From a virus (lineage: Duplodnaviria > Heunggongvirae > Uroviricota > Caudoviricetes): DNA of 64,000 nucleotides. Shown one piece after another: positions 5,247-64,000 of the stretch. A program made the translations under genes and the position numbers. The notes under the pieces were generated by a model, which did not search any database, was not told the origin of the DNA, and was given only the letters and a program-made list of their open reading frames with translations. Within the stretch, counting starts at the first letter, position 1; the number at the start of each line of letters is the position of its first letter. The DNA lies in IMG/VR virus record IMGVR_UViG_2693429713_000009; one strand, given 5' to 3'.

Positions 5247-5737
5247 TTTACGTAAAAGTGAAACGCCTACATCCGGCAGCAAAACTTCCAGCTTATGCCA
5301 CCTCCGGATCGGCGGCGATGGATTTTGAGGCTGTTGAAATAAAACCATGCGTCGATAGCAATGGTGCAATTTCCTCAAGCTGGTGGGTGTACACCGGACT
5401 GGCTATGGAGATCCCGCCCGGCTGGTGTCTGAAACTCTATCCGCGCTCCGGATTGGGCTGCAAAAAACATACTCGCCTGGCTAACTGCGTAGGAATTATC
5501 GACTCCGATTATCGCGGTGAAATCATGGCAAAACTGATTACTGATCCAGGCGGGGAAGTCGTTCGTCTCAAGCCTGGAATGGCTGTCATGCAAGGCATTT
5601 TTGAGCGTGTTGAACAAGTCTCACTAGTCGAGGTTGAGGAACTCAACGAAACGGAACGTGGTGCTGGTGGCTTTGGTAGCACATCGGAAGACCACTTTGA
5701 AATCAAGCGCACACCGCTTCAGTACGCAAAGTTTTAA
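5243..5737 (+). CDS. dut: dUTP diphosphatase (dUTPase)
   Basis: 164 aa; hallmark dUTPase motifs (…YPRSGLG…, GIIDSDYRGE). Confidence 0.8.
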   Translation: MIYVKVKRLHPAAKLPAYATSGSAAMDFEAVEIKPCVDSNGAISSSWWVYTGLAMEIPPGWCLKLYPRSGLGCKKHTRLANCVGIIDSDYRGEIMAKLITDPGGEVVRLKPGMAVMQGIFERVEQVSLVEVEELNETERGAGGFGSTSEDHFEIKRTPLQYAKF

Positions 5738-47101: not shown

Positions 47102-47593
47102 ATGTCCGGTTTTGCAAATACAAAAGCCGATATGGCCTTTCTAAAATCCCGGTTTAATAAAAACCTGGCTGCAGGCGAAAAACTTATTGGTTCTGAATAT
47201 TGGATGACCATTAAGGGTTACGAACATCTGTCTGTACTAGTTCGTACAGCTCAGTTACCAGAAATGACACGCGAAGATGTGGAGGATTACGCCCCTGGTG
47301 GCATGAAATTCAACCAGCACGGACCATTACGCAACTCTGGTGAATTTCAGGTCACATGCGCGGAAACTATCGAAGGCGCAGTTCTCGCCGCTGTAAAACA
47401 GATGGTATACGGAAAAGAATATCTGGAAATTACCTTACAGGCGGCGGCTGAATCGAATAGCGGTAACCATAAAGGTCTGATCCGCACATATTCTCATTGC
47501 AAAGTGTATTCCGACGCCGTGGACTTCTCATCCGAAGACGTAACGGCGGTCGTTAAACCTTCCCTGCGCATTGTTTACAACTGGGCGGAATAA
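47102..47593 (+). CDS. virion structural protein candidate (possible tail tube)
   Basis: 163 aa; position after sheath-like gene. Confidence 0.35.
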   Translation: MSGFANTKADMAFLKSRFNKNLAAGEKLIGSEYWMTIKGYEHLSVLVRTAQLPEMTREDVEDYAPGGMKFNQHGPLRNSGEFQVTCAETIEGAVLAAVKQMVYGKEYLEITLQAAAESNSGNHKGLIRTYSHCKVYSDAVDFSSEDVTAVVKPSLRIVYNWAE

Positions 47594-49013: not shown

Positions 49014-49305
49014 GAGGGCATTTTTTACATCATCAATTCATCTGTAATGAAGGCATTCTTTACACATTTCAATAATATCAATCAGTTAACACAGTGAATG
49101 ATAATAAAAAAGCGCAATAAGAATGCACGATACGCACGATATTGGTTGAGGGTGATTTTTACATAATCCTTACATATCAATACGTTATATAAAAACACAA
49201 CTTGCTAATAACAAGATACATGCAATTAAGATGTAAAAATTGCCCTCAATTGCCGATCGTTAAGGGCAAATTCTACACCTTGAGAAGGGTGTAAAAATTG
49301 CCCTT
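49014..49305. repeat. iteron cluster downstream of repA (incA-like copy-control locus), about 5 copies in both orientations
   Basis: GAGGGCATTTTTTACATC (49014), GAGGGTGATTTTTACAT (49148), inverted copy (49229-49246), AAGGGCAAATTCTACACC (49262), inverted copy (49288-49305). Confidence 0.6.
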
Positions 49306-50059
49306 AAGACTGCTGATAGGTAAATTTTATCCTGGTAACTTTTCCGCCTTCCGTCACCTCTGAGAAGACTATTTTCATTTTTGTATTTTTTTCAATCTCT
49401 GCTACAGCCTTCGTTAAAAAACTTCTCTTAAATTCGGCATACCGCTGATAGCTTTTTGGTAACCCATAACGCTCCCGCATCCATTCGACGCCAAGTATGG
49501 CAAAGCCGCTTCCATCATCCTTCCTGTACTGGCATAAGGACTCATAAAGCCGCATAGAATAAGGATTTGTAAGGCGAGATACTTCGGTAAAATTCAGCCT
49601 CGTGAATCTCTTATCAAGCAGAGTAAAAAACGGCATGAGATATGGATTAAGATGAATAATGTAAGTCCCGCGCCGTGGTGAATAGGCATCCTTAATCATC
49701 CAAGGATAAGACTCATAACTGTCTTCTGATTCGGTCGATTCATCAGGGTTATATATCGTAACTTTCTTCTCGCTAAGCCCTGAAATGGCCTTACGAATAT
49801 CCTTGCTGGCTTCAGCAGAGGGCAAATTATACATCTCTGCATATTCGTTGACCGTCAACTCACAGGCACCTGAACCAAGAACGCCATCCTTAGAAGCATA
49901 GCGAAGTCTTCCCACCACAATAAACAACAGTCGCTTTTGGTCGCGAGTCAGGTGATAAGCAGCCTCCGTGATCTCATTGGCTTGTGCCAAACTACGACTA
50001 ATAGGTGTCGCTGACTCAATCAGGCTGACGGCTTTTGCTGTTAATTCCGCTCTGTTCAT
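49304..50059 (-). CDS. repA: iteron-binding plasmid replication initiator (RepA-like)
   Basis: 251 aa from ATG 50059 (ORF track extends to TTG 50092); flanked on both sides by 18-19-bp iterons. Confidence 0.6.
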   Translation of the reverse strand: MNRAELTAKAVSLIESATPISRSLAQANEITEAAYHLTRDQKRLLFIVVGRLRYASKDGVLGSGACELTVNEYAEMYNLPSAEASKDIRKAISGLSEKKVTIYNPDESTESEDSYESYPWMIKDAYSPRRGTYIIHLNPYLMPFFTLLDKRFTRLNFTEVSRLTNPYSMRLYESLCQYRKDDGSGFAILGVEWMRERYGLPKSYQRYAEFKRSFLTKAVAEIEKNTKMKIVFSEVTEGGKVTRIKFTYQQS

Positions 50060-50084
50060 AACCCTGTGTGATCCTTCGAATGGT

Positions 50085-50201
50085 GAGGGCAATTTTTACA
50101 TCACTTTGAGGGCAATTACTACACCTTTTGAGGGCAAATCTTACACCTTTTGAGGGCAAATCTTACACCGATCGTATTTAATTGAGGGCAATTCTTACAC
50201 C
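50085..50201 (+). repeat. origin iterons: five direct repeats GAGGGCAA(A/T)T(C/T)TTACACC at 22-23 bp spacing
   Basis: Copies at 50085, 50108, 50130, 50152, 50184, immediately upstream of repA; one more inverted copy at 50324-50341. Confidence 0.7.
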
Positions 50202-57729: not shown

Positions 57730-57823
57730 TAATTCTTCCCCCGCATTTGGGGGAAGAACAACGGAAATCACAAACTGAGCATACTCTCCTTTGGTTCATT
57801 GCTTATGAAGGGGCTATGTTCGT

Positions 57824-58270
57824 ATGGCTGAAAATTTAAAGGCAAGAGATGGTAACCGCCTGTATAAGGCGCAATTGCTTTCCTACTATTATTCACGCCG
57901 CGCTGAGTCGGCGATCGGTAAAGGTGCGCGTTTTGTTATCTCTAAGGCGTATTGGTGCAAATCTAGTCTGGTAACTGCTAATGGTGCAGGAGGCTGGAAT
58001 ATAGCGGACATTCCACTCGATTTTAAATTGAGTAACGCTCAACAGTTTGCTGTGTCCGATCTGATATTGTCCAGTGTGGATGGGATTATCACTATCAATG
58101 CAGCCTTCCCTCAAGAAAGAATGCCGGATAACACGCCTTACGACTTTAACACGCTTGTGCTTGTTGATGCTGAGGAACAGGCTTTTGGTGTGCTTTGCAC
58201 CCAGCAAGATACCCTCTATAAAGGTAAACGTTACAGTATTCTCATGACAATCGAGCAAGTTGAGGGTTGA
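57824..58270 (+). CDS. tail-fibre-associated protein (R-like, by position)
   Basis: 148 aa; ATGA overlap with the tail-fibre gene. Confidence 0.4.
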   Translation: MAENLKARDGNRLYKAQLLSYYYSRRAESAIGKGARFVISKAYWCKSSLVTANGAGGWNIADIPLDFKLSNAQQFAVSDLILSSVDGIITINAAFPQERMPDNTPYDFNTLVLVDAEEQAFGVLCTQQDTLYKGKRYSILMTIEQVEG

Positions 58271-61269
58271 TTATGGGGGCTGATAAAACGAACAACATAA
58301 TGACACTATCCTCTGGTGTCTCACAGCCGTTGCTTGCTGATGTTCAATATTTCGAACTCTATAGTAGTTCGGCTCTTAACAGAAAACTTAAAAATATTGT
58401 TTTGCCTGGCTTTTACTGTGGATTTGAACCAGTTCCCGGCACAGGGTTGAGTGTTCGTATAACTTCTGAAAACTCAGAAGGTAAAGGGGCTGCTTCAGTA
58501 GATGTAAATAATGTTCAGATATCCGTTCAGCAAATAGAAGATGTGACTGTCTCGGTAAAGGCTGGGGCTACCAACATTATTGTGCTGGAAGCCAATTTTG
58601 AACATGGTGTAAAAACGACACAGGTAGATAGCGCATCTTCTGTCAGTGCTGCAAGAATTTACGTGCGTACGGACAATACTATTGGGCAGAATCAAATTGA
58701 ATTATGTCGAGTTATCGTGCCTAACGGCGCAACGGCTGTGACTAAAGAAATGATTGTGCTTAAATACCGGGTTAACCGTGCTGTTGGTGTCGAATTTTCT
58801 AATGAAATAAGCAGTACAGAAGAAAGAAAAGCGGCTACACCTCTGGCTGTCAAAACTCTCCATGATTTGGTTGATACAAAAGCTCCGCTCGATAGTCCGC
58901 ATCTGTCAGGTACGCCGACTTCGCCTACACCTGAACCCGGTACAAACAACACACAGATCGCAAATGCGGCCTTTGTCTATGCTGCTATAAATGCGCTTAT
59001 CAATGGTGCTCCGGGAACGATGGACACGCTGAAAGAAATAGCGGCTGCGATCAATAACGACCCGAATTTCAGCACAACTATCAACAATGCCCTGGCTCTT
59101 AAAGCTCCTTTGGCAAGCCCGGCATTCACAGGTACGCCGACAGCACCTACGGCCTCACAAGGCACAAATAGCACGCAGATTGCAAATACAGCCTTTGTTA
59201 AGGCAGCTATAACGGCACTTATCAACGGTGCACCTGGCACATTGGATACGCTGAAAGAAATAGCGGCTGCGATCAATAATGACCCGAATTTCAGCACAAC
59301 TATCAACAATGCCTTGGCTCTCAAAGCGCCTTTGGCAAGCCCTGCATTAACGGGTGTCCCTACTGCGCCGACCGCCGCACAGGGCACAAATAATACGCAG
59401 ATAGCTACGACCGCTTATGTAAGAGCTGCCATATCCGCATTGGTTGGTTCATCACCAGAAGCTCTTGATACCCTGAATGAGCTTGCCGCAGCACTTGGCA
59501 ATGACCCGAACTTTGCGACAACAATGACAAATGCGCTGGCAGGCAAACAGCCTCTGGATGCAACTTTAACCGCGTTTGCTGCCCTTGCGACTGGTGCAAA
59601 CAAACTGCCTTATTTCACCGGTAAGGATACGGTAGCGCAGACTGATTTAACGTCAGTCGGTCGCGATATTCTGGCTAAAACAAGCACACTGGCCGTTATC
59701 CAATACCTTGGTTTAAGAGAACTCGGAACAAGCGGTGAAAAGATCCCCCTGTTGAGCACGGCTAACACATGGAGTGCACGCCAGACTTTCAACGGCGGGA
59801 TCACCGGGGCGCTGACAGGGAATGCCGACACCGCGACGAAATTGAAAACAGCCATAAACATTAATGGCGTCAGGTTCGATGGTTCTACGAACATTTCGAT
59901 ACCAACAATTACGTCTAGAGGACGCGTTACTGCGCTTACCGGTACAACGCAAGGTGCTGCTACTGGATTGCAGATGTATGAGGCATACAACAATGGTTAT
60001 CCAACGACTTACGGGAATGTACTTCACCTAAAGGGAGCAGCATCCACTGGTGAAGGTGAGTTGCTCATTGGCTGGAGTGGCACAAATGGCGCTCATGCAC
60101 CTGCTTTCATTCGATCCAAAAGAGATAGCACTGCTGCGGCATGGTCCGAATGGGCACAGATCTATACGTCAAAAGATTCAGTTCCCGGCGTCAATGCTAA
60201 AGGGAATCAGGACACCTCTGGTAATGCGGCTACAGCGACCAAATTGCAGATAGCACGTACCATTAACGGTGTCTCGTTTGATGGTTCTAAAAATATTGAG
60301 TTAACGGCGGAAGATTTAAATCTTGAGCAAACTGTAGAATTAGCCGCAGGGGCATTACAGAAAAACCAGAACGGCGCAGATATTCCAGGAAAAGATACTT
60401 TCACAAAAAATATTGGTGCATGTCGCGCTTTTCACGGTGCTATTAGTACAGGTGCAGGGAACTGGACAACAGCACAATTGATTGAATGGCTGGATTCTCA
60501 AGGGGCATTCAATCACCCATACTGGATGTGCAAATGTTCATGGTCATACGGCAATAATAAAATTATTACCGATACTGGCTGTGGAACTATTCATCTTGCA
60601 GGTTGCGTTATTGAGGTTATGGGTAATAAAGGTGCCATGACCATCCGTGTAACAACACCAAGCACTTCCACCGGAGGCGGCACCACTAACGCTCAATTCA
60701 CTTATATTAATCATGGTGATGCTTATGCTCCTGGCTGGCGAAGAGACTACAACACGAAAAACCAGCAGCCTGCATTTGCTTTAGGGCAAACAGGAAGCAG
60801 GGTTGCAAATGATAAAGCTGTTGGCTGGAACTGGAATAGCGGCGTTTATGATGCAGATATCAGTGGCGCATCGACATTAATCCTCCACTTTAATATGAAT
60901 GCGGGGAGTTGCCCTGCTGTACAGTTCCGCGTGAATTATAAAAACGGCGGTATCTTTTATCGTTCAGCGCGTGATGGTTATGGCTTTGAAGCTAACTGGT
61001 CAGAGTTTTACACCACAACCCGCAAACCCTCTGCGGGGGATGTTGGTGCATATACGCAGGCAGAATGTAACTCAAGGTTTATTACAGGTATTCGCCTGGG
61101 CGGTCTGTCATCTGTTCAGACATGGAATGGTCCCGGCTGGTCTGACAGGTCAGGTTATGTCGTTACAGGTTCAGTTAACGGAAACCGTGATGAATTAATT
61201 GATACAACACAGGCAAGGCCAATTCAGTATTGCATTAATGGAACGTGGTATAACGCGGGGAGTATTTAA
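58267..61269 (+). CDS. tail fibre protein S (constant N-terminal part plus variable C-terminal part Sv)
   Basis: 1000 aa; three 74-aa tandem repeats; gix-like site in frame at 59696-59721; segment after it is homologous to inverted Sv' at window end. Confidence 0.75.
58879..59544 (+). repeat. three tandem 222-bp (74-aa) repeats inside the tail-fibre gene
   Basis: Repeated coding blocks …[15 protein letters not shown]…[49 protein letters not shown]…. Confidence 0.7.
59696..59721. other. gix/cix-like DNA-invertase crossover site
   Basis: TTATCCAATACCTTGGTTTAAGAGAA: 26 bp with imperfect dyad (TTATCCAATACC / GGTTTAAGAGAA) closely resembling Gin/Cin/Hin sites as recalled. Confidence 0.55.
59931..60405. 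repeat. left arm of inverted repeat; right arm is 63525-64000 on the opposite strand
   Basis: 59931-59980 is identical to the reverse complement of 63951-64000; encoded proteins stay alignable for about 150 aa. Confidence 0.7.
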
Positions 61270-61271
61270 TC

Positions 61272-61805
61272 ATGATGCACTTAAAAAACATTACTGCTGG
61301 CAATCCTAAAACGAAAGAACAATACCAGCTAACAAAGCAATTTAACATCAAATGGCTTTATTCAGATGATGGAAAAAACTGGTATGAGGAACAAAAGAAC
61401 TTTCAGCCTGATACGTTGAAAATGGTCTATGACCGTAACGGCGTTATTATTTGTATTGAAAAGGATGTTTCAGCAATTAATCCAGAAGGCGCAAGCGTCG
61501 TTGAGGTTCCTGATATTACAGCAAATCGCCGGGCTGATATTTCGGGTAAATGGATGTTCAAAGATGGCGTAGTGGTAAAGCGAACTTATACCGAGGAAGA
61601 GCAGAGGCAGCAGGCGGAAAATGAAAAGCAAAGCCTGCTACAGCTCGTCAGGGATAAAACCCAGCTATGGGACTCACAGCTACGGCTGGGCATCATTTCC
61701 GACGAGAATAAACAAAAATTAACCGAGTGGATGCTCTATGCTCAGAAAGTCGAATCTACAGACACTTCCAGCCTGCCAGTAACGTTTCCCGAACAACCAG
61801 AATGA
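61272..61805 (+). CDS. tail fibre assembly protein (U/Tfa-like)
   Basis: 177 aa; paralogous to inverted gene 61833-62360. Confidence 0.7.
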
Positions 61806-61806
61806 G

Positions 61807-61834
61807 GCAAGGCCCGCTATCGGGCCTTAATTTT
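61807..61834. terminator. hairpin between convergent U and U' genes
   Basis: AAGGCCCG-ctat-CGGGCCTT followed by AATTTT. Confidence 0.5.
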
Positions 61835-62360
61835 ACTCTGGTTTTTGTGGCCATTCTGGCTTTGCCGTATCCACACGGCTGACCAGAACACTGTAGCGTT
61901 CCCATGCTTCCAGTCGTGTGCGCTCCTCGTCTGTTGCCATATTCAGCCTGACAGCGCGTTCCAGCGGCTGGATGACTGATTCAGCTTCGGAAAGCAATGC
62001 GGCCTTTTGTAATTCGGCCTGTTGTTGCTGTTCGTCTGCCGTATAAATCCGTTTAACTACAGCTCCATCCTTAAACATCCACTTACCGGAATCATCAGCG
62101 CGGCGGTTGGCTGTAATATCGGGAACCTCAACGACGCTAAAACCTTCAGGGTTAAGCGTGGAGGCATCTTTAGTGATGGCGACAATAATATTATTTGCAT
62201 CGTAAACAATCTTTATTGTGTCTGGCTGAAAGTTTTTCACTTCCTCATACCAGTTTTTTTCGTCCTCAGAGTAAAGCCAGATGACTCCGTGCTTCTTTGT
62301 TAACTCATACTGTTCCAGTGTTTTAGCGTTACCCGCTTTTATGTTCTTTAAGTGCATCAT
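61833..62360 (-). CDS. alternative tail fibre assembly protein (U'-like)
   Basis: 175 aa; same MMHLKNI…[10 protein letters not shown]…GKWMFKDG blocks as U. Confidence 0.7.
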
Positions 62361-62361
62361 A

Positions 62362-64000
62362 TTAAACGCTCGCTACATTATACCAGGTGCCATTTATATA
62401 CTTTTGAACGGGTCTGTAATAAACGCCCGCTATATTATCGGCAGAATTGGACCCTGTATCCTGAACATTAATACCAGACAATACATGACCTGACGGGCAC
62501 TGGAAATTCCATGTTTGCCAGTTGTTCACTCCATAATATTGCTGTGAACCAAGTCGAATATCTTTCACATATCGGGAATCAATGTTACCCCAGTTGCTTG
62601 GTTGTATCTGACCGTTTACAGCAAATGTCACCGAGTTATCTGTATTTCGCTGACTATAGAAATGCCAGCCTGAATCATCACCAAGCTCTGCAACAGTTGG
62701 TCTTGACGAATTTCCCCACAAGTTAAATGATGCATTACGGGCAGCTGTATTTGAGCTTGAAAGTGTGAATAACTTACTTTCCCCAGTCTGAATACCCTTT
62801 AATGATATTGCTGAACCATTTCTAAAGCGGAATACATGCACACCATTAGCATAAGCATCCAGCACCCCATCACCATTTTGTTTAAACCCGGTATCGTTAT
62901 CTCCTAAAACTATTGAATTGCCACCCAGGGCATTAGCCGTTCCAATCCCCAGATTTCCGCTAAAAATGGCATTAATACCGAATATTGAGTGAGAACAATA
63001 AAACCCTCGCCCATTGTTAAAATCAAGAATAGCTTGTGCGTTCGTGCTTTCTGTCGCGGGATTAGTTGCTCCCCACTTATATGTTGTTTGACCGACGGTA
63101 TAATCCTGAGTTGGAACAATAACCGTTAGCCCTTCTTCAGCAGAAACCCGCACAGGAAAAGCCCTGCCTTCAACGTAAAAAACGCTGCATACATCATCTT
63201 CTTTAAGGCTTGTTACAATGGAATGGATTGCGCGCTCATTAGTCTGATACGTCGAAAAATAACCTGCCGCATATGAACCACGATCAGTCCAGCCACCAGG
63301 CATTACCATTCCATTGAATTCGCAGTTATTCATTTCGTAATTACCACCGGCAGATGTGGTCGTTATAATCACTCTGGAAGCCAGCTCGCCAGTGCTGCCT
63401 GTGGAACGCCGGAAAATAACTGGATACCACTTTCCACCAACTGCATTAGACGGCGCATTAAATGCGTACTGCCGCATTCCTTTTTTCTTATCCACTTCGC
63501 CTTTGCTGTAAACATTAATGTTACTCAGGAAGCGATCTTTATCAGGAATATCCGCGCCGTTCTGGTTTTTTTGCAATGATCCAGCGGCTAATTCTACGGT
63601 TTGCTCAAGATTTAAATCTTCCGCCGTTAGCTCAATGTTTTTAGAACCATCAAACGAGACACCGTTAATAGTGCGCGCCGTCTGCAATCTGGTCGCCGTA
63701 GCAGCATTGCCGGAGGTATCCTGATCCCCTTTGGCATTGACGCCGGGAATTGAATCTTTTGACGTATAGACCTGCGCCCATTCAGACCAGTTGGCAGAAT
63801 CAGTATCCCGCCGCGAACGGATATGTACGGGCGCATGGGCACCGCTCGTGCCACTCCAGCCAATGAATAACTCACCTTCGCCAGCAGCGGTGGCACCTTT
63901 AAGGTGAAGCACATTGCCATAGGGGGAAGGGTAGCCATTGTTGTATGCCTCATACATCTGCAATCCAGTAGCAGCACCTTGCGTTGTACCGGTAAGCGCA
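62362..64000 (-). CDS. alternative tail-fibre variable C-terminal segment (Sv'-like); 5' end beyond window
   Basis: Frame open to window edge; N-terminal 150 aa homologous to the post-gix part of S; distinct C-terminal receptor-binding part. Confidence 0.65.

Follow-up and report, generated by a model that had tools for sequence, protein, structure and literature searches.

A tail-fibre operon with a probable P1-type invertible C segment in a P1-like phage-plasmid

The tail-fibre gene near the end of the 64,000-nucleotide stretch of viral DNA analysed here (the window) is followed by two opposed sets of fibre tip and chaperone genes, raising the question of whether the locus is a host-range switch and, if so, of which type. 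We consider it very probable that a P1-like phage-plasmid's R-S-U tail-fibre operon, with a classical Cin/cix invertible C segment, occupies the region from 57.8 to 64.0 kb. Its identity as a P1 C segment follows from an identical cixR crossover site, R-S-U synteny, convergent tip and chaperone sets, and relatives that possess both cixL and cin. A P1-type switch of this kind is already known, and the present example is an ordinary one. For P1, both how the switch works and what it does for host range have been described (PMC6906374; bioRxiv 10.1101/2022.07.24.501295, which refers to Iida 1982/1984 and to Hiestand-Nauer & Iida 1983).

The genes leading into the segment are arranged as in P1. 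Upstream of the fibre gene S lies a 1260-aa sit-like gene, then pmgA-, bplA-, gp16- and R-like genes, with S and U following, an order shared with Punavirus P1 (AF234172; sit-pmgA-bplA-16-R-S-U / U-S'). This tail and baseplate gene order, along with near-full-length similarity to P1-like plasmids, places the sequence among Punavirus (P1-like) phage-plasmids. The R-like gene for tail-fibre structure or assembly (57824-58270, + strand) opens the operon outside the invertible segment, in the position that R holds in P1 and P7. A Pfam profile search of the R, gp16-like, bplA-like and sit-like proteins gave no match; a precomputed Pfam table, made on the identical contig gene, lists PF26881 (Phage_P1_tail_fiber_R) for R, and also PF26903 for gp16. 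The P1 late promoter LPs was not recognised by eye in 57730-57823, upstream of R, a sigma-70 consensus scan returned fewer matches than shuffled sequence, and searches of the window for tRNA genes and Rfam families found none.

The reading frame of S opens at 58267 (TTG, in frame) or 58273 (ATG) and closes at 61269 on the + strand, the gene being called as 58273-61269. Its constant N-terminal part, Sc (58273-59708, +), carries a Phage_fiber_2 repeat and the sole start codon for both versions of the fibre. Within Sc, two tandem 222-nt (74-aa) repeats (58879-59322, +; repeat family D1, 79%) are the equivalents of the 222-nt elements b1/b2, which the P1 annotation likewise places inside Sc. The Sc protein differs from its P1 counterpart, with an amino acid identity of just 58.6%.

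A crossover site lies at the boundary between the constant and variable parts of the fibre gene. The sequence at 59696-59721 (TTATCCAATACCTTGGTTTAAGAGAA) had been described as closely resembling Gin/Cin/Hin crossover sites, and this is borne out: in a comparison with the P1 annotation, covering cixR and its flanks, it is identical to P1 cixR at 26/26 positions. It has the expected design of two 12-bp half-sites, TTATCCAATACC and (on the other strand) TTCTCTTAAACC, which are imperfectly symmetric around a 2-bp core, TT at 59708-59709. The crossover point presumably falls between 59708 and 59709, as the P1 annotation has it, and alignments of inverted-state relatives to the window start at 59698. 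The site occurs once. No further copy with up to 3 mismatches was found in the 64-kb window, and no match arose in any of 100 shuffles. Allowing 3 mismatches, a degenerate core pattern found no other site inside 58-64 kb; its sole other match in the window, at 47140, is at chance level.

Beyond this site, the visible part of the C segment (59709-64000) aligns collinearly with the closest relative, by homology with which the full segment would measure 4,514 bp and end at about 64222. The locus reads, in order, Sc, tip, chaperone, hairpin, chaperone and tip, with the two sets converging. The expressed tip (59709-61269, +) is fused in frame to Sc and shares 90.6% amino acid identity with P1 Sv' and 93.9% with P7 Sv. 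It is followed by the expressed tail-fibre assembly chaperone (61272-61805, +; Caudo_TAP, 5.7e-37; 94.9% amino acid identity to P1 U'). Between the convergent chaperone genes is a GC-rich hairpin (61809-61828; 8-bp stem, 6 GC), a putative terminator. The alternative set comprises a silent chaperone (61833-62360, −; Caudo_TAP, 3.8e-37; 92% amino acid identity to P1 U) and a silent tip (62362-64000, −), whose frame is uninterrupted as far as the window end, shares the codon phase of S through the repeat and supplies no start codon for the fibre. The distal ~385 aa of the silent tip are unlike the P1 and P7 tips and about 57% identical to P2-family fibre tips. Over 62365-63550 (−), the silent tip has no close counterpart in P1, P7 or Mu and reaches at most about 58-60% identity to any fibre in a phage collection, with P2-family H proteins as the best matches. 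The coordinates given in the original prediction hold (the analysis gives S at 58267-61269 and U at 61272-61805 on the + strand, the second chaperone at 61833-62360 and the open frame at 62362-64000 on the − strand), but its U/U' labels are swapped relative to P1 naming. Judged by sequence identity, the set fused to S is the homologue of P1 Sv'/U' rather than Sv/U, and the silent chaperone is that of U.

The P1 type is marked by inverted repeats of about 0.6 kb that begin at the crossover sites, and the arm here likewise starts at cixR, with 466 nt of the partner arm visible. A repeat tool paired 59931-60396 with 63535-64000 (466 nt, 83%). The repeat had been predicted at 59931-60405 / 63525-64000; it does exist, but its true Sc-proximal arm, which is coding, spans 59709-60396 (~0.69 kb, from the repeat tool and relative alignments) and starts at the site itself. 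The apparent start at 59931 simply reflects where the window stops, since position 59931 mirrors 64000. The cin-proximal arm (63535-64000) is cut by the contig end, its last 65 nt (63936-64000) being a perfect mirror of 59931-59995. In relatives, the repeat begins at the crossover site and is perfect over 450-700 bp; across the comparisons made, the perfect stretches beside the sites range from 287 to about 700 bp. A divergent mosaic patch of 164 bp (59997-60160) interrupts the Sc-proximal arm. We rejected an assembly artefact as its source, since complete plasmids carry the same allele, at 98.8% identity.

The opposite state of the switch is found in the closest relative, the Salmonella plasmid NZ_CP028198.1. 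This circular, 92,366-bp element is a 92-kb non-mobilizable plasmid of P1 layout, with a backbone 99.8% identical to the window, and in it the segment lies the other way round, with cixL and cin intact. Window 59698-64000 is collinear with positions 4001-8303 of the relative locus L001 (98.7%), while Sc aligns to the opposite strand; the cix centres are 4,514 bp apart in L001, and relatives have exactly two sites. The recombinase of NZ_CP028198.1 (186 aa) carries Resolvase (5e-51) and HTH_7 (3e-18) domains and is 98% identical to P1 Cin; P1-like Cin proteins all belong to a single 90% cluster. In systems of this kind a Fis-dependent enhancer lies within the 5' portion of the invertase gene, and the corresponding region of this 99.8%-identical relative, a putative enhancer, matches that of P1 at 68/72 positions. 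Of the two opposed fibre C-termini with their chaperones, one is in frame with Sc in the window, and flipping the segment in silico brings the alternative into frame, yielding a 3,297-nt ORF with no internal stop that encodes a 1098-aa fibre. The flipped fibre is identical to the annotated NZ_CP028198.1 fibre at 1099/1099 positions, and the predicted flipped junction (1,401 nt) is 100.0% identical to that plasmid.

Both orientations also occur naturally among other plasmids. The silent-tip allele was found in 12 complete plasmids, fused to Sc in six and beside the recombinase gene in the other six; in the latter, the match begins at probe position 199, equivalent to window 59698. Further, in CP057047 and CP057059, each 93,415 bp and both from one farm sample, exactly the stretch bounded by the two cix sites is inverted in one relative to the other, at 99.9% identity. 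The evidence for two orientations, namely the window against NZ_CP028198.1, CP057047 against CP057059, and the 6:6 split, is a comparison between records.

These observations can be drawn together as follows. Transcription and translation of the fibre start in Sc, outside the segment, and the reading frame enters the segment by way of cixR (59696-59721). As the segment now lies, the frame runs on into the P1-Sv'-like tip, with its chaperone next, and the other tip and chaperone sit startless on the opposite strand. The flipped junction is found exactly in the nearest relative. The serine invertase Cin, probably encoded just beyond the far end, would pair cixR with an inverted cixL, cut both sites at the central TT and exchange the ends. 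The ~4.5 kb between them would flip, Sc would join the other tip in frame so that a 1098-aa fibre replaces the 998-aa one, and the other chaperone would come to lie downstream. This would change the bacteria to which virions adsorb, if, as we infer, the two tips give different host ranges, cixL and cin lie in this same replicon at the contig's other end, and Cin is active here.

The arrangement can be set against several known systems. The P1 C segment (Cin, cixL/cixR) shares with the present locus the 26-bp cixR, arms of ~0.6-0.7 kb starting at the sites, and tips and chaperones that are 90-95% identical (Sv'/U' and U); moreover, cin of the close relatives is 98% identical to that of P1, and cixL overlaps the cin stop codon. 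It differs in its constant part, in having Sv where the silent tip here is P2-family-like, in its length (4,256 bp, against 4,514 bp by homology here), and in the mosaic patch, which here cuts the perfect repeat to about 287 bp. The P7 C segment (AF503408) matches in architecture and sites; its Sv is 93.9% identical to the expressed tip here, and the chaperones are 93-97% identical. In P7, however, Ua/Ub together make up the equivalent chaperone, which is split, and P7 Sv' is unlike the silent tip here. The Mu G segment (Gin/gix) follows the same working principle, and its unique central part of tips and chaperones shares ~89% DNA identity over ~2 kb. Mu has gix sites and short (34-bp) inverted repeats, whereas the site here is cixR and the repeats are P1-sized. 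The layout had been predicted as that of the P1 C segment or Mu G segment; the P1 half of this description stands (cix, 0.6-0.7 kb repeats), while the Mu half (gix, short repeats) does not. The p15B Min, e14 Pin and Salmonella Hin systems belong to the same serine-invertase (Din) family and use the same 26-bp site design. Min has six sites and many fibre segments, and what Hin inverts is a promoter, not coding sequence, so that neither fits the two-set, two-site layout seen here.

Neither cixL nor cin was found in the 64,000-nt window or the readable part of the contig, which ends at 64000. An exact search with the S protein maps to a single contig, CYEJ01000016.1 (92,210 bp, GCA_001283245.2), and this source contig stops exactly at window 64000, so no sequence can be read past that point and cin is missing from view. 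The switch might be frozen, with cin or cixL deleted or truncated within a P1 architecture and the fibre locked in the P1-S'-like state. We regard this as improbable, although both elements are out of view, since the contig ends inside the repeat, and some P1-like plasmids are reported to carry cin and C segments that are truncated or rearranged (PMC6906374). Both elements are intact in the closest relative, and short-read assembly is expected to break within a perfect inverted repeat. Further, the contig is nearly as long as the 92,366-bp relative and the comparable 58 kb differ by a net 2 bp; only ~156 bp would therefore be missing, less than the perfect repeat, leaving no room for a cin deletion. 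The end at 64000 comes from assembly, through the perfect inverted repeat and probably also a population of mixed orientation; it is no biological end. Because the replicon is circular, cixL and cin are expected at the opposite end (the start) of the near-complete 92.2-kb contig, the evidence for their presence in this replicon comprising the two lengths (92,210 and 92,366 bp) and synteny. Projected from relatives by homology, the cixL centre would lie ~222 bp past 64000 (site at ~64210-64235) and cin ~217-777 bp past it, in line with the originally predicted few hundred bp; TTCTCTTAAACCAAGGTTTAGGATTG stands at the equivalent place in relatives L001, L002, L005 and L006 and in P1.

The differences in orientation could instead arise mainly by RecA-dependent homologous recombination between the 0.3-0.7 kb repeats, not by Cin acting at cix. 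Comparing two states does not locate the crossover, because the arms beside the sites are identical and recombination anywhere within their perfect stretches gives equal products. Yet the end of the repeat falls precisely on a site whose sequence is that of a biochemically defined crossover site, an intact and highly conserved invertase and enhancer adjoin that site in all close relatives, and P1 inversion is known to depend on cin. Recombination as the main route is thus very unlikely, though both routes may coexist. A shufflon-like arrangement of the p15B Min type, in which there are multiple crossover sites and numerous versions of the fibre, is almost certainly not what we observe: P1-like plasmids with Min-type invertases do exist (PMC6906374), but the one site in the window has no companion in 58-64 kb, relatives have exactly two, and neither more than two sites nor several invertible modules were found. 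Repeat length, site identity and site number led us to reject both Mu-type and Min-type readings, leaving the Cin/cix C segment as the preferred one.

The region is best annotated as a P1-like phage-plasmid's Cin/cix C segment, and its import beyond annotation is small. Automated annotation yields differing "tail fibre proteins" of 998 and 1098 aa for what is one switchable gene. Consequently, comparisons of host-range genes across P1-like plasmids should allow for orientation. We speculate, tentatively and with slightly less than even confidence, that this lineage may alternate between two fibres, one P1-S'-like and the other with an uncharacterised receptor specificity, perhaps adapted to Salmonella, given that the silent tip is without a close counterpart in P1, P7 or Mu. 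If this is true, the 164-bp mosaic patch would show that the repeat arms are remodelled via exchange with other fibre genes.

The tail-fibre region is best read as a textbook Cin/cix switch, in which a serine invertase, Cin, exchanges the tip of the fibre. An R-like gene (57824-58270, + strand) is followed on the same strand by the fibre gene S, which carries the phage fibre repeat and runs from an ATG at 58273 or a TTG at 58267 to 61269 (998 or 1000 aa). The adjoining chaperone gene (61272-61805, + strand, 177 aa) converges on a second one (61833-62360, - strand, 175 aa), with a GC-rich hairpin between them at 61809-61828. Each chaperone has a Caudo_TAP match at about 1e-37, and the two genes mirror each other at 73-76%. 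A silent-tip frame of 546 codons on the - strand extends from 62362 and remains uninterrupted up to the window end. The coordinates originally predicted for the region were right, agreeing with both the ORF list and the repeat finder.

Several observations concern the surroundings. Directly 3′ of the gp16-like gene and ahead of R, a perfect 10-bp-stem hairpin occupies 57733-57758 (TTCTTCCCCC GCATTT GGGGGAAGAA), without a T-run after it; in the spacer between these two genes, P1's annotated late promoter LPs was not recognisable by eye. A Rep_3-family replication initiator gene (49304-50092, - strand; Rep3_N 3e-29, Rep3_C 1e-15) immediately adjoins the tail module, two genes upstream of a sit-like tape-measure/transglycosylase gene. 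P1 has a few tRNA genes. None was found in the whole 64 kb window, nor was any Rfam family at gathering score, and counterparts may lie within the 28 kb of contig outside it.

The sequence TTATCCAATACCTTGGTTTAAGAGAA occurs once in the window, at 59696-59721, inside S. Compared with the P1 GenBank record, which annotates cixL, cixR and the crossover points, it is identical to P1 cixR and its flanks at 26 of 26 positions. What had been predicted as a gix/cix-like site is therefore cixR itself, a closer correspondence than was claimed. Two 12-bp half-sites flank a TT core at 59708-59709, and following the P1 annotation the exchange point would fall between these two bases. No second copy with up to three mismatches was found in the 64 kb window (nor in 100 shuffles), and the degenerate core pattern has no other match in the fibre region.

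The exact S protein is recorded on one contig, CYEJ01000016.1 (assembly GCA_001283245.2), whose 92,210 bp represent essentially the whole circular plasmid. This contig ends exactly at window position 64000, so the record holds no sequence past the window end. The last 65 nt are a perfect mirror of 59931-59995, and the arms of relatives are perfect for 450-700 bp counted inward from the site; the contig thus breaks 65 nt into a perfect inverted repeat, as is typical of short-read assemblies. The repeat finder returned arms at 59931-60396 and 63535-64000 (466 nt, 83% identity), upholding the presence and coordinates of the predicted repeat, but the apparent start at 59931 is only the mirror image of position 64000, and the true arm is 59709-60396.

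Both orientations of the segment occur in nature. Window positions 59698-64000 are collinear at 98.7% with the closest relative, the circular Salmonella Concord plasmid pGMI14-002_2 (NZ_CP028198.1, 92,366 bp), where the constant part of the fibre gene, Sc, is on the opposite strand; the segment is therefore inverted relative to its flanks between the two. Placing the outer arm and then 62362-64000, reverse-complemented, behind Sc in silico gives a 3,297-nt ORF with no internal stops. It encodes a 1098-aa protein with the same sequence as the annotated NZ_CP028198.1 fibre, and a 1,401-nt probe for the flipped junction matches that plasmid at 100.0%. Two independent lines agree with this inversion. 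Plasmids CP057047 and CP057059 (both 93,415 bp, from one farm sample) differ solely by inversion of the cix-bounded block, at 99.9% identity. Among 12 complete plasmids with the silent-tip allele, it is joined to Sc in six and adjoins the recombinase gene in six; in the latter the match begins at probe position 199, or window 59698, the same point at which P1, D6 and many plasmids begin to match the original query. Automated annotation of this one switchable gene varies in product name and length with orientation (L005/L006 and L001/L002, four P1-like loci, L001 being that of the closest relative), as with 'tail fiber protein' of 997 aa (2,994 nt) in L002 and L005 versus 1098 aa (3,297 nt) in L001; silent tips in this set appear as partial 'phage tail protein' ORFs.

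Because the arms beside the sites are identical, comparison of states would fit Cin crossover at the core and homologous recombination elsewhere in the repeat equally. The segment differs from the closest relative by 57 mismatches, 53 of them in a 164-bp patch (59997-60160). They fall mostly at every third base and are confined to the Sc-proximal arm, where the patch cuts the perfect repeat down to about 287 bp. Assembly error was rejected as its source, since further complete P1-like plasmids, such as CP088811.1, have the same allele at 98.8% identity; the patch is a natural one, of mosaic or gene-conversion origin.

For the Cin/cix reading, the closest relative indicates where the remaining parts should lie. 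Over its first 20 kb the window is 99.8% identical to NZ_CP028198.1; window position 1 falls at record position 5359 and the S start at 63627, which leaves a net offset of 2 bp across 58 kb. There, cixL and a 186-aa recombinase lie directly outside the segment. Assuming that the part of the contig outside the window (28.2 kb) is equally collinear, all but about 156 bp of the circle would be on the contig, which would start within the repeat, about 66 nt from cixL. On this basis, cixL is predicted near positions 54-79 of the contig and cin near 71-631. By homology, the cixL centre would be about 222 bp past 64000, in line with the distance originally expected. The L001 and L002 recombinases carry Resolvase and HTH_7 domains and share 98% identity with Cin of P1 and P7, the region annotated in P1 as the inversion enhancer is identical at 68 of 72 positions in relatives, and cixL overlaps the cin stop codon in both loci as in P1. 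We infer that the window's replicon likewise carries cin and cixL.

The expressed tip is 90.6% identical in amino acids to P1 Sv′ and 93.9% to P7 Sv, its chaperone is 94.9% identical to P1 U′, and the silent chaperone 92% to P1 U, resemblances that place the window in the state named C(-) in P1. Apart from the stretch encoded by the repeat, the silent tip resembles nothing in P1 or P7 closely; in the phage collection it matches P2-family fibres best, at about 57%. Sc (58273-59708) is only 58.6% identical to the P1 constant part, against 90-98% identity to P1 for the invertible segment and for cin of the relatives; the switch cassette is more conserved than the gene around it. The low Sc identity and the unmatched silent tip fit the mosaic, recombination-prone character reported for this region in P1-like plasmids (PMC6906374).

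With promoter and start codon outside the segment, the reading frame runs through cixR. Cin, aided by the enhancer, would bring cixR and cixL together and catalyse strand exchange at the central dinucleotide, trading the fibre's last ~520 aa for an alternative ~620 aa and swapping the downstream chaperone, while the hairpin between the chaperone genes may end transcription in both states. The original prediction was correct apart from minor corrections, and neither the system nor the kind of element that carries it is new. A flip would presumably alter host range. In P1 itself, the S′ fibre, whose role the 90%-identical window tip may share, has recently been tied to transduction of Shigella flexneri and E. 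coli O3 that depends on the O antigen (bioRxiv 10.1101/2022.07.24.501295).
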